NCBI GenBank assembly: GCA_023251075.1
Contig: JAHEZM010000005.1
Coordinates: 24,753 to 88,752 of the forward strand
DNA: 64,000 nt
Reading direction: 5' to 3'
From: Flavobacteriales bacterium
GTDB taxonomy: Bacteria; Bacteroidota; Bacteroidia; Flavobacteriales_C; GCA-002722245
Below are positions 51,293 to 53,580 of this stretch, in pieces. The notes beneath the pieces are model-generated. The model worked only from the letters and a program-made list of their open reading frames with translations. It had not been told where the DNA came from and did no database searches. How positions within the stretch are numbered: the stretch's first letter is position 1; each line of letters starts with the position of its first letter. A program made the position numbers and the translations under genes.

Positions 51293-51320
51293 TACGTTGC
51301 TCGAAATAAATAGGTTGGGT
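51293..51320 (-). promoter_or_regulatory. Orphan ECF-type promoter motif in antisense orientation between GH18 and the second sigma gene
   Basis: The minus strand reads cACCCAACCtatttatttcgagcaaCGTATCCTAGTA, spacer 16 nt. It points leftwards towards the GH18 3' end and no ORF follows. Confidence 0.4.
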
Positions 51321-51470
51321 GCAGAAAAATAAATATTTTTTTGATGCAACCCATTGAAACTTAAGTGTTCTTTCAAAGGTTCTAATTACCAAGTGTTTTA
51401 AATTGAAAAGACAGAAATTCTTTTTTACAGAATTTTTTTAATTGCTTTTCATTTTAATACCATAGGATCT

Positions 51471-52151
51471 TTGAAAGTGTTAACAAACGGGGCATTTGCT
51501 TCAAATATAAATTGTGTTGGAAATGTATTTTACATATATTTCCATTGCAAAGAGATAACAGGGGAACTACTTTTTAAAGAGAATAAAGTGATTACAAATG
51601 AGCTCATAAATAAATGTATCCTTCAAGATATTAGAGCGCAGCTTGAGATGCACGAGACTTGTTATCATTTATTGATGCCTGTTTGTTATAAGTTTTTGCA
51701 CAATGAAGAAATGGCAAGAGAACTCTATAATCAGGGTTTTCTTAAAATTTTAGACTCTCTGAAAACCTTCGATCAATCGAAAGATTTTTCACAGTGGGCT
51801 AAAAAAATAATGATGAATAAATTAATTGATGAATATAGGAGTAGAAAATCTTTACGTAATGTGATCGATCAAAATTTAGAAGTAAATTTTGTTTCCAATA
51901 CTTTAAAATCCTCTGATGTTAATTCTTACGTGAACAAGGAAGAAGAGGAGAGAGTGTCGTATTTATTGGCTAAATTACCTTTAACAACACGACGGGTTTT
52001 TAGTATGTTTGCTTTAGAAGGATATTCGCATCAGGAGATTAGTGATTTGATGAATATGTCCACCGGTACTTCTAAATGGCATGTTTCAAACGCAAGAGAA
52101 ATTTTAAAAAAATATTTGAGCAGAAAAAGTAAGTTGGTAGAAAATGAATGA
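51471..52151 (+). CDS. RNA polymerase ECF-type sigma-70 factor (paralogue of 20778..21347). The likely true start is GTG at 51588.
   Basis: From VITNELINKCILQD onward it aligns with MIEEQLIKRCIEKD of the first sigma. It carries the same C-terminus MSTGTSKWHVSNAREILKKY. Confidence 0.8.
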   Translation: MKVLTNGAFASNINCVGNVFYIYFHCKEITGELLFKENKVITNELINKCILQDIRAQLEMHETCYHLLMPVCYKFLHNEEMARELYNQGFLKILDSLKTFDQSKDFSQWAKKIMMNKLIDEYRSRKSLRNVIDQNLEVNFVSNTLKSSDVNSYVNKEEEERVSYLLAKLPLTTRRVFSMFALEGYSHQEISDLMNMSTGTSKWHVSNAREILKKYLSRKSKLVENE

Positions 52152-53580
52152 TGTAAATAGCGACATACCTGTGTTTGTTTACAAACCAGAATACCGCGAA
52201 GAAATGCGTAAAATCCTTGAGAAAAGGAAAAAAAGACGTGTTTTCTTTTGGTTGTTTTTTGGAGGCGTAATGCTGGCCGCAGCTTCTACTTTTTATGTTG
52301 TTACAAATAATAAAGAGCAACATAATCAAATTGCTGATTCAAATATTATTGAAAACAAAATTCCTGAAAGTACGAGTTCTACTCAAGAGGAAGTAGTGCT
52401 TGGTTCAAACTCAAAAAAGCAAGATATTGTTGTTCAAGATTCTTCCGTTAAGAAGGTTCCTCTTGTATCTGCTTCCAGCACCCAAAAAACGGAAATACCC
52501 AATGCACAGAAAATAAAGAATAAAGAAAACAAAGCAAATCATATTTCATCGGATTTTCCCCTCAGTACCCCATTATTATCTTCCTCTTCAAAAACAAGGA
52601 ATAATAGAGAAGAAGTAAAAACAAATGAAGAATCGGAAATTCAAAAGGAAAATAAAAAAGTTGAATCGGAACAAAACAAATCCAACCAATCACAAGAAGC
52701 AAAAAAAAATGAAACTCCTGTTGTAACAATTGCTGCTCCTGAATATACGGATGCTATAAAAGATACTCTTCCAAAAGTTGCAGAAGAAAAAGTATTGAAA
52801 AAAGATTCAGGAGTGGTGGCAGCACAATCTACTCCCAACTCTCCATCACCAGATACTTTACCTGCTAAAAAAGAAGAAGAGGAGAAAAAGAAAAAAGCGA
52901 AAAATTATTTTTTGGATGATGTAAATGTTTATGCTGGTGGTTTAATACACAATACATTTGGCAATGGAGTTTATAGTAATGGTACAGCATTTTCTTATCG
53001 TGCAGGTATTGGAGTTGCTAAAAAAATAAATGATCATTCCCTATTATCTGCTGGTTTGGAAGGCACCTACTACAATCGTTTGTATAATTTTGGTGGAAAT
53101 GATTCTTCAATACTCACAAATGACGGGCAAACGATGGTAGGGTATGATTATGTAGAAAAGAGAAGAACCTATTTTTATGAAAACAATTATTCTATTTCAT
53201 TGGCAATGCCTATTTCATACATTTATCAGCTCGATAAACTGAATGTTTATGGCGGTTTAAATTTCGAATATTTTATTCAAAATAGTAACCGTGTTAAAAA
53301 TGATACCACTGTTTATGGAGTAAATACTTTTATTGTTAATACTTATGTGTATCAATATAAAATGTCGGGAGAATCCACTGTTAAAAATGATTTTTCCGGA
53401 GTGAGTCGATTTCAAATGGCTGCATTTGTGGGTGCTGATTATCGTTTCAGCAATAGATTTTCTTCCGGGGTTCGTTTATCAACCGGACTGATTGATTTGC
53501 TTAGCAACAAATGGATCTCTAGTTCGGGATATAATAGTTTATGGAATGCTAACCTGTATTTAAAGTTTCATTTACTTTAA
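52144..53580 (+). CDS. Putative anti-sigma-like membrane protein with Lys/Glu/Ser-rich linker and C-terminal beta-barrel-like domain (paralogue of 19583..20755)
   Basis: Overlaps the sigma gene by 8 nt. The N-terminus YKPEYREEMRKILEKRKKRRVFFWLFFGGVMLAAASTFYVV has the same layout as the first module. The C-terminal ~230 aa form a beta-rich domain. Confidence 0.5.
   Translation: MNDVNSDIPVFVYKPEYREEMRKILEKRKKRRVFFWLFFGGVMLAAASTFYVVTNNKEQHNQIADSNIIENKIPESTSSTQEEVVLGSNSKKQDIVVQDSSVKKVPLVSASSTQKTEIPNAQKIKNKENKANHISSDFPLSTPLLSSSSKTRNNREEVKTNEESEIQKENKKVESEQNKSNQSQEAKKNETPVVTIAAPEYTDAIKDTLPKVAEEKVLKKDSGVVAAQSTPNSPSPDTLPAKKEEEEKKKKAKNYFLDDVNVYAGGLIHNTFGNGVYSNGTAFSYRAGIGVAKKINDHSLLSAGLEGTYYNRLYNFGGNDSSILTNDGQTMVGYDYVEKRRTYFYENNYSISLAMPISYIYQLDKLNVYGGLNFEYFIQNSNRVKNDTTVYGVNTFIVNTYVYQYKMSGESTVKNDFSGVSRFQMAAFVGADYRFSNRFSSGVRLSTGLIDLLSNKWISSSGYNSLWNANLYLKFHLL

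Follow-up and report, generated by a model that had tools for sequence, protein, structure and literature searches.

Positive autoregulation of an ECF operon relies on a cognate promoter that lies in sense orientation 5′ of the sigma and anti-sigma genes. The common view of ECF sigma factors is that of simple switches with positive feedback, and it is routine to predict the promoters they target from the motif found upstream of their own gene. From such a promoter, the sigma-dependent transcript is expected to start 5-10 nt downstream of the -10 box. Eiamphungporn and Helmann are said to have described, in 2009, an ECF-dependent (SigX/SigM) cis-antisense RNA of B. subtilis yabE (entered as PMC2632094 in the reference list of PMC4731013), and Shearwin reportedly set out the classes of transcriptional interference in 2005. 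Such interference has been quantified: an antisense promoter placed 3′ of a gene lowers its expression through collision together with antisense RNA (Brophy & Voigt 2016, PMC4731013). In Porphyromonas gingivalis, the ECF sigma factor of the PorXY-SigP system controls genes for components of the T9SS machinery (PMC4800418).

Here we describe a 64-kb stretch of DNA from a Flavobacteriales bacterium (the window) that encodes two paralogous modules of an ECF sigma factor and a membrane protein. The first module lies behind a sense promoter. Upstream of the second, a perfect copy of the same promoter motif points in the opposite direction. Every related genome examined has the same reversed copy, which argues for a maintained promoter rather than a stray motif; the element is probably an antisense or insulating promoter and not a small-RNA gene. 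A literature search found nothing on this ECF family, on the ACCCAACC motif, or on an ECF regulon of T9SS cargo genes.

The promoter motif and the two sigma modules

The sequence ACCCAACC-N16-CGTA is a real ECF-type promoter, cognate to the family of the two sigma factors of the window (sigma1 and sigma2). It combines the sequence characteristics of functional ECF promoters, namely a -35 box containing AAC, a -10 CGT box, a fixed spacing of 16 nt, conserved boxes and a free spacer. The window contains nine exact copies compared to 0.00 expected from shuffled sequences. Three more copies of good quality deviate by one mismatch (21382(-), 22889(+) and 49755(+)), which brings the total to 12 against an expectation of about zero. 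All but the copy at 51293-51320 are located on the same strand as, and 9-204 bp 5′ of, genes for T9SS cargo proteins or sigma1. A weight matrix trained on these 11 sites, with the remaining copy left out, assigns 27.6 bits to the latter. All 12 sites score between 26 and 39 bits, and the next-best position in 64 kb reaches 9.1 bits. Sigma1 and sigma2 have the same sigma-4 recognition helix (STGTSKWHVSNAREILKKY), and the core of this helix is invariant across the family.

The copy at 51293-51320 is an exact match on the minus strand, with the -35 box at 51313-51320, a 16-nt spacer and the CGTA -10 box at 51293-51296. Transcription from this reversed promoter is predicted to start at approximately 51284-51287 and to proceed towards lower coordinates. 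A sense motif upstream of sigma2 was not found: the best plus-strand score in 51199-51600 is -10.4 bits, and this range contains no plus-strand match with two mismatches or fewer. On both points our analysis agrees with the preliminary description of this locus, which had noted the perfect copy on the opposite strand and the lack of a sense motif before sigma2. The same description placed the motif 180 bp upstream of the gene. This distance is correct relative to the start in the ORF track (51471), but not relative to the real GTG start codon, which is 268 bp away from the -35 edge of the element.

Sigma2 (51588-52151, plus strand, 187 aa, GTG start) matches the Pfam families Sigma70_r2, Sigma70_r4_2 and Sigma70_ECF and scores 88 bits against TIGR02937 (cut-off 42.9). 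No NCBIfam subfamily more specific than TIGR02937 scored above its cut-off. Because the protein contains regions 2 and 4 only and matches ECF profiles, we assign it to the ECF sigma factors (group 4). The earlier suspicion that the ORF track starts this gene at the wrong codon, and that the true start is the GTG at 51588, proved correct. This GTG aligns with Met9 of the sigma1 ORF. The orthologues of sigma2 (182-187 aa) all open with GTGATTACA, and in every one of them an in-frame stop is found 1-15 codons 5′ of the start with no alternative start in between, so that the corresponding codon is the only possible start.

The stop of sigma2 (52151) is overlapped by the start (52144) of a gene for a membrane protein of 478 aa (partner2: 52144-53580, plus strand), a paralogue of the protein encoded at 19583-20755. 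Partner2 opens with a short conserved peptide, followed by one hydrophobic helix and a low-complexity linker, and ends in a beta-barrel-like domain. The profile PF13568 (OMP_b-brl_2) matches four out of ten members of the partner family (best E 2.5e-9), and partner2 of the window stays under the cut-off with E 0.011. No Pfam or NCBIfam match indicated a recognizable N-terminal anti-sigma domain (classical ASD, zf-HC2, RskA) in the partner, and in the family alignment the N-terminus preceding the membrane helix contains only about 30 conserved residues (NIPxFEYKPEY...). By its context, as a single-pass membrane protein encoded directly 3′ of a sigma gene, the partner is a putative anti-sigma factor. 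A word-based search for partner homologues returned only the partner itself, and orthologues were collected by synteny; the pairing of sigma and partner is kept in all loci of both clades.

The first module (19583-21409, minus strand) comprises a sense ECF promoter (21382-21409, one mismatch), sigma1 (20778-21323) and partner1 (19583-20755). The two sigma factors are 53% identical (E 6e-75). Between the two partners, identity amounts to 26% across the last 212 aa (E 4e-10), and both contain an IPxFxYK motif near the N-terminus. These values support the earlier view that the second module is a duplicate of the first. In orthologous loci of sigma1 the genes follow the order Kazal gene, sigma1, partner, and an exact sense motif is located 5′ of the Kazal gene.

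Conservation and surroundings of the reversed promoter

To the collection of sigma2-clade loci (L001, L002, L003, L004, L005, L086, L093 and L094), a search of genome contigs contributed no member (best match 49%) and did not recover the genome of the window itself, and a search of metagenome contigs contributed one further sigma2 locus only. The locus also occurs in the assembly of SRR14366772. All eight recovered orthologous loci, which represent approximately six lineages with 68-74% protein identity, contain the motif on the minus strand. Conservation in relatives had been proposed as a check on the preliminary description, and the outcome is strongly positive. In each of the eight relatives, 132-144 bp separate the reversed motif from the GTG, and no sense motif occurs between the reversed motif and the sigma2 start codon in any orthologue. 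The distance from the reversed element to the stop codon of the upstream gene is variable (65-161 bp). A near-fixed distance to sigma2 combined with a variable distance to the upstream stop links the element with the regulation of sigma2 rather more than with a particular antisense target, and the motif does not deserve the name "orphan" that it had been given.

The level of agreement between loci differs sharply from one part of the element to the next: pairwise identity is 0.96 in the -35 box, 1.00 in CGTA, 0.45 in the spacer and 0.24-0.33 on the transcribed side, where the first 60 nt after the promoter resemble each other no better than random AT-rich DNA does. Judged from these alignments, the pattern of boxes, spacer and flanks is that of a promoter. 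Two of the MAGs with a sigma2-clade locus also contain the sigma1 paralogue (L001 with L088, and L093 with L006). Among 80 distant homologues, 34 have a sense motif within 350 bp upstream, compared to 0.6 predicted by background density, and none has a reversed motif within this distance.

The reversed promoter converges on a T9SS cargo gene of the GH18 type (49834-51198, plus strand; Pfam Glyco_hydro_18 and Por_Secre_tail), which is preceded by its own sense ECF promoter (49755-49782, plus strand; ACCCAACG, one mismatch, 32.1 bits). The upstream neighbor in orthologous loci is always a plus-strand cargo gene with Por_Secre_tail, and in L001, L003, L086 and L093, where the 5′ region was recovered, this gene has an equivalent sense motif. 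The identity of the cargo varies, with GH18 in the window and beta-helix proteins in the relatives. A T-tract in the sequence at 51267-51273 (plus strand) closes the 3′ region of the GH18 gene, 19 nt from the reversed -10 box. We found no strong hairpin at this tract (fold z-score +0.43), which makes it a weak terminator at best. Two relatives, L003 and L004, contain strong hairpin-plus-T terminators at the equivalent position (z -3.8 and -5.1). On the far side of the module, an exact motif copy at 53762-53789 (plus strand) serves as the sense ECF promoter of a CHU_C cargo gene (53993-57607). In the relatives the CHU_C gene comes directly after the partner gene and has no motif of its own.

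On the sigma2 side, the reversed -35 box of the relatives adjoins a conserved block at fixed spacing, which is confined to orthologous sites. Its diverged counterpart in the window lies at 51321-51380 (no strand assigned); the alignments give 0.64-0.71 identity over 40 bp. This block may be the promoter or regulatory region of sigma2 itself. The -7 box of Bacteroidetes-type promoters reads TAnnTTTG. The block only approximates this sequence, and since TAnnTTTG shows no clear enrichment 5′ of the genes in the window, the assignment as sigma2 promoter is tentative. The sigma2 leader (51381-51587, plus strand) includes about 130 bp that are absent from the relatives, and a 15-nt inverted repeat is found in or at the leader (51370-51384 / 51463-51477). 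A search for further copies of the leader elsewhere returned none, and a conserved structure in the leader was not detected (RNAalifold consensus -1.3 kcal/mol, negligible). We also considered a mobile or duplicated promoter cassette, and rejected this idea because neither the intergenic region of the window nor the block of the relatives recurs elsewhere.

Possible roles of the reversed promoter

We lean towards the interpretation that the reversed element is a selected ECF-dependent divergent promoter, and that its predicted non-coding transcript acts in cis on the upstream cargo gene. The element would be recognized by sigma1, sigma2 or both, and would fire away from the sigma2-partner operon, back-to-back with the regulatory region of this operon. 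Upon activation of the sigma factor, RNA polymerase would start on the minus strand at the predicted site around 51284-51287, cross the T-tract and then transcribe the 3′ part of the GH18 gene in antisense, a gene with a sense ECF promoter of its own. The same geometry, an opposing promoter without any stop signal between it and the overlap, is present in the window and in all orthologous loci. The preliminary description had already named a minus-strand transcript that enters the GH18 gene in antisense as one of two outcomes, and we found no intrinsic terminator on the minus strand downstream of the promoter. Because this RNA would be non-coding and unconserved in sequence, an effect in cis is most likely. 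The transcribing polymerase might collide head-on with polymerases that are completing the cargo gene or running past its end, the RNA might pair with the 3′ end of the cargo transcript, sigma2 might be insulated from read-through, or some mix of these routes may operate. Since L003 and L004 have strong upstream terminators, insulation against read-through would not be the whole reason for keeping this promoter. Transcription of sigma2 itself presumably begins in the conserved block beside the reversed -35 box, which is specific to this clade. Its gene is not preceded by the sense cognate promoter that characterizes autoregulated ECF operons. With a reversed promoter in place of a sense one, sigma2 would not directly activate its own expression, and in this it would differ from sigma1 and from most homologues.

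The near-fixed distance of 132-144 bp to the sigma2 start, the variable distance to the upstream gene and the unconstrained transcribed sequence would also fit a model that we consider rather unlikely, in which binding and melting of DNA by the ECF holoenzyme beside the sigma2 promoter is what mainly matters and the minus-strand RNA is a by-product. The bound holoenzyme might repress sigma2 by competition or occlusion (negative feedback), or divergent transcription might stimulate sigma2 through supercoiling (indirect positive feedback). In the relatives, the spacing between the motif and the neighboring conserved block of 55 bp is free of indels, and this block occurs at sigma2-clade loci only, which points in the same direction. 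However, the motif of the window is still perfect despite divergence of the block and an insertion of about 130 bp in the leader. Furthermore, conservation of the full -35/-10 geometry favors productive initiation over mere binding. Occupancy of this site and cis-antisense transcription may also act together. A different explanation starts from Bacteroidota, where invertible promoters are common: a recombinase could flip the segment, and the assemblies could show a phase-variable promoter in the OFF state. Although weak imperfect inverted repeats of 11-17 nt flank the motif in each locus, these repeats are short, 72-87% matched and at non-homologous positions, as expected in AT-rich DNA. The motif has the same orientation in eight out of eight assemblies from different samples, and this explanation is hardly credible.

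An ECF promoter of normal quality with no protein-coding gene behind it would fit the small RNA that had been suggested for this locus, under the control of an ECF sigma factor and comparable to the trans-acting, SigE-dependent RNAs MicA, RybB and MicL of E. coli. This suggestion did not hold up and we regard it as improbable. The downstream sequence is unconserved among the orthologous loci, a minus-strand intrinsic terminator is missing, and the transcript would enter the antisense strand of a coding gene directly. Minus-strand RNAs of 125 nt from five lineages fold no better than shuffled sequences (z -1.3 to +0.9). A search for Rfam families in 49500-54100 with E up to 1 returned only two chance snoRNA-like matches, both inside the partner gene. 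We give next to no credence to a small minus-strand coding gene either. ORFs antisense to the cargo 3′ end can be called mechanically, for example 50865-51131(-) with 88 aa, but they overlap the well-supported C-terminal domain of the cargo protein on the other strand, and no two lineages agree in where these ORFs lie, how long they are and what they encode. In the intergenic part, no lineage contains an ATG-initiated minus-strand ORF of at least 10 aa. Finally, the promoter could be an evolutionary relic that once served a divergent cargo gene, since lost or replaced. The distant homologue L068, where a reversed motif 408 bp upstream drives a divergent gene for a protein of 336 aa, makes such an ancestral state plausible. 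That the element is now functionless is nevertheless very improbable. The 12 specified bases are intact in six of the seven sigma2-clade loci compared, with one change in L094. Spacers and flanks are near-random, even between L001 and L093 with more than 90% identical sigma proteins, and an unselected 12-base motif would not outlast such divergence.

Returning to a cis-acting divergent promoter, we note that a cargo gene and an opposing promoter induced by the same sigma factor would make an odd circuit unless damping is intended. It is conceivable, though we hold this only tentatively and doubt outweighs confidence, that in this clade the promoter cognate to an ECF paralogue was inverted and then kept by selection as a damping or insulating device, as part of an undescribed two-sigma circuit that tunes T9SS cargo genes. 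In such a circuit sigma1 would operate in a positive loop, in which a sense promoter drives the operon of Kazal gene, sigma1 and partner. The reversed promoter, beside the promoter of sigma2 itself, would oppose transcription arriving from the cargo gene, and would in this way either shield sigma2 from the regulon or couple it negatively to the regulon. The circuit would include partner proteins that have both a helix for the inner membrane and a domain resembling an outer-membrane barrel. If this picture is correct, the locus would be a natural example of antisense tuning as built in synthetic biology, set in a large and apparently undescribed T9SS-cargo regulon of uncultured Flavobacteriales-like bacteria. 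The sigma2 clade has kept the motif in the orientation opposite to autoregulation, and a motif search that ignores orientation would wrongly call this locus autoregulated. Two paralogous ECF modules with one promoter specificity can apparently follow different wiring, with self-amplification in only one of them.

Comparison with described systems

Like autoregulated ECF operons, the sigma2 locus combines the same motif, the same kind of location and the same sigma family, and the rule of a sense promoter is obeyed by sigma1 and by the 34 of 80 distant homologues mentioned above. Unlike in these operons, the orientation is inverted and the promoter cannot transcribe sigma2. The locus shares with MicA, RybB and MicL an ECF promoter without an ORF behind it; in contrast to these RNAs, the sigma2 loci provide no conserved RNA sequence, terminator or structure, and are not of the same kind. 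As in the PorXY-SigP system, an ECF sigma factor of Bacteroidota is linked to type IX secretion, but in the window the motif is found 5′ of cargo genes, and the place of the two-component system is taken by a membrane protein whose C-terminal domain resembles a beta-barrel.

The resemblance to yabE consists of an ECF-type promoter opposite a protein-coding gene and of a predicted non-coding, overlapping transcript that would act in cis. The promoter described here differs in that it is intergenic and next to the paralogous gene of the sigma factor itself, at the position of the autoregulatory promoter in homologues. Further differences are that it converges on a gene of the same regulon and is conserved across a clade. 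The arrangement of a forward promoter at 49755, a gene of 1.4 kb and an antisense promoter just beyond the 3′ end is that of convergent transcriptional interference. Unlike in the interference systems of PMC4731013, both promoters at this locus are predicted to answer to the same sigma factor.

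ECF-type promoters and their regulon

The motif ACCCAACC-N16-CGTA occurs in nine exact copies in the 64-kb window versus none in dinucleotide shuffles. Three further copies, each with one mismatch in the -35 box, lie at 21382(-), 22889(+) and 49755(+), and together the twelve sites map to 10891(+), 12863(+), 15890(+), 21382(-), 22106(-), 22175(-), 22889(+), 30155(-), 38746(-), 49755(+), 51293(-) and 53762(+). Because the -35 box contains AAC and the -10 box is CGT, we identify this motif as a promoter of the ECF type, by which a local regulon is defined. For the matrix scan we trained a weight matrix on 11 sites, excluding the site under study, a reversed element at 51293-51320(-). 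Twelve positions in the window scored 26-39 bits and the next best 9.1 bits; the excluded element reached 27.6 bits. Eleven of the twelve copies are followed by a gene on the same strand that starts 9-204 bp downstream. With the exception of sigma1, the sigma factor gene of the first ECF module, the genes behind sense copies encode type IX secretion (T9SS) cargo with a Por_Secre_tail or CHU_C domain: a DUF4434 protein, a pectate-lyase-like protein, a Kazal protein, a GH18 protein and several giant CHU_C proteins. The promoters crowd into a dense island (10891-53789). The copy at 22889(+) (22889-22925 region) ends just 9 nt before the listed ATG of a 1587-aa CHU_C gene, which points to a probable error in the start call or to an almost leaderless mRNA. 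Our literature search found no ECF regulon of T9SS cargo genes.

The paralogous sigma modules

The ORF at 51471-52151 codes for Sigma70_r2, Sigma70_r4_2 and Sigma70_ECF domains. Its product, sigma2, is 53% identical to sigma1 (20778-21347(-), E 6e-75), and the sigma-4 recognition helix STGTSKWHVSNAREILKKY does not differ between them. ECF sigma factors with the same recognition helix are expected to share -35 specificity, which we therefore predict for sigma1 and sigma2. The suspicion that the ORF track mis-starts sigma2, and that translation begins at the GTG at 51588, proved correct: this codon aligns with Met9 of the sigma1 ORF, and the sigma2 orthologues in public data (182-187 aa, all with the N-terminus GTGATTACA) begin at a GTG with an in-frame stop 1-15 codons upstream and no other start in between.

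The partner2 gene (52144-53580(+)) overlaps the sigma2 stop codon with its start. Its product matches partner1 (19583-20755(-)) with 26% identity over the C-terminal 212 aa and a common N-terminal IPxFxYK motif (E 4e-10), so the second module does duplicate the first, as the preliminary description had proposed. In an alignment of ten family members, roughly 30 conserved N-terminal residues are followed by a single hydrophobic helix, a low-complexity linker that varies and a C-terminal domain of some 220 residues, which matches the outer-membrane beta-barrel profile PF13568 in four of the ten (best E 2.5e-9; partner2 itself only E 0.011). Partner2, partner1 and the partner at a sigma1-type locus (L088, 6570-7976) share a short cytoplasmic peptide, one membrane helix, a long low-complexity linker and a barrel-like domain. 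If the helix sits in the inner and the barrel in the outer membrane, such a protein would reach across the envelope, an unusual arrangement for an anti-sigma factor. Domain-profile searches detected no classical anti-sigma domain in partner2, and gene context makes it a putative anti-sigma factor. The ECF family, its T9SS cargo regulon and the barrel-domain partners appear to be uncharacterised.

Among species-representative genomes, a scan found sigma homologues of 33-49% identity at 80 loci, in MAGs with labels such as Flavobacteriales, Crocinitomicaceae and Saprospiraceae. In 34 of these loci a sense-oriented ACCCAAC[C/T]-N16-CGT precedes the sigma gene by no more than 350 bp (0.6 predicted from background density); a reversed copy within this distance occurs in none of the 80. 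The only reversed copy nearby, at -408 bp in L068, precedes a divergent 336-aa gene.

The sigma1 orthologues retain the order Kazal gene, sigma1, partner, with an exact sense motif before the Kazal gene. This is a single copy, whereas the window has tandem exact motifs 69 bp apart (22106-22133(-) and 22175-22202(-)) upstream of the Kazal gene (21423-22076) and a third, one-mismatch copy at 21382 between this gene and sigma1. At one such locus (L006, 5900-6000) a strong terminator-like hairpin (AGAGAGGG...CCCTCTCT plus T-run) separates the Kazal gene from the sigma1 orthologue, so transcription that reads through from the Kazal promoter may be attenuated here and not pass freely. Two MAGs contain both paralogues (GCA_026390935.1, L001 and L088; GCA_023251095.1, L093 and L006), which indicates that the duplication is old and that the two wirings coexist.

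A reversed promoter upstream of sigma2

Between the GH18 stop (51198) and the sigma2 GTG no plus-strand position scores above -10.4 bits in the matrix scan, and the only motif is the perfect minus-strand copy at 51293-51320, in agreement with the earlier reading of this region. The distance of 180 bp given there holds for the ORF-track start at 51471; from the -35 edge (51320) to the real GTG it is 268 bp.

Contigs were traced for four orthologues of sigma2 (68-74% identity) and for members of the 90% identity clusters to which they belong. The syntenic order is a plus-strand T9SS cargo gene, sigma, partner (428-451 aa) and a giant CHU_C gene. The proposed check for conservation in related genomes gave a clear result: all eight loci (L001-L005, L086, L093 and L094) carry the motif on the minus strand 5' of the sigma gene, 132-144 bp from the GTG, exact in seven and with one mismatch in L094. 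Mean pairwise identity of the orthologous sequences, anchored on the motif, is 0.96 for the -35 box and 1.00 for CGTA, compared to 0.45 for the 16-nt spacer, 0.24-0.33 for 60 nt on the transcribed side and 0.64-0.71 for 40 bp on the sigma side. Even L001 and L093, with sigma proteins more than 90% identical, have spacers that differ throughout and intact boxes. At the sequence level this profile is a promoter footprint under purifying selection, not a conserved RNA nor chance.

Next to the reversed -35 box, the relatives share a block of some 55 bp without indels (consensus GAAATAAAGATGTTTTTnTTGTTTTTGTATTGATCnAnGTTGTAATTTGTA). This block was found nowhere else in the retrieved DNA, nor does it occur in the sense autoregulatory promoters of the distant homologues. 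Because of a TA(A/T)TTT box similar to the Bacteroidetes -7 element, the block is a candidate for the site of sigma2's promoter; upstream of genes in the window, the exact TAnnTTTG box shows hardly any enrichment. In the window the block has diverged and the sigma2 leader contains an insertion of about 130 bp of unique sequence (51381-51510), absent from all relatives and without a further copy in the window. A 15-nt inverted repeat in this leader (51370-51384/51463-51477) is 87% matched; its right arm matches the CTTTGAAA element in relatives' leaders. The CHU_C gene after partner2 has its own ECF promoter inside a 413-bp gap (53581-53992). In relatives this gene abuts or overlaps the partner gene (L001, 11912-11913; L004, 3868-3877) and lacks a motif, so it would there rely on the promoter of the sigma2 operon.

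Possible roles of the reversed promoter

The most economical reading of these sequences is a functional, sigma-dependent divergent promoter for a cis-acting non-coding transcript. Minus-strand transcription would start beside the T-tract that closes the upstream cargo gene (51267-51273 in the window), would in L003 and L004 cross a strong plus-strand terminator hairpin (z -3.8 and -5.1) in reverse, and would then reach, in antisense direction, the part of the cargo gene that encodes its C-terminal sorting domain. At this gene end, structures in the window, L001 and L086 are no more than weak. Every cargo gene whose 5' region was available has its own sense ECF motif (49755-49782(+) for GH18), so the transcript would converge on an upstream gene of the same regulon and act in cis. 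Repression by antisense promoters at gene 3' ends proceeds via antisense RNA and colliding polymerases (PMC4731013). The GH18 promoter is preceded by a tandem pair of strong terminator-like hairpins (49539-49617(+)), which would isolate the GH18-sigma2-partner region from preceding genes.

The suggestion of a small RNA akin to the E. coli SigE-dependent sRNAs, acting in trans, fails on sequence conservation, terminator and structure. Downstream of the promoter the minus strand has no terminator-like site and no Rfam match, and the predicted 125-nt RNAs are no more stably folded than shuffled sequences (z -1.3 to +0.9). Nor did we find in any lineage an ATG ORF of at least 10 aa in the intergenic part; antisense ORFs farther on have nothing in common between lineages. 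Intact boxes amid diverged spacer and flank speak against a relic, and an invertible promoter lacks proper inverted repeats and would have to account for the same orientation in eight of eight loci. By its distance the element is tied to sigma2 and not to the upstream stop codon, which makes a second model serious: through occupancy or firing, the site would influence the sigma2 promoter next to it or keep read-through out of that promoter. This mechanism may act jointly with the cis-acting transcript.

Our literature search found no clade-conserved cognate ECF promoter that is reversed at an autoregulatory position and points towards a member of the same regulon. ECF-driven antisense transcription as such is already a known kind: to judge from a reference listed in PMC4731013, B. 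subtilis yabE has an ECF-dependent cis-antisense RNA.
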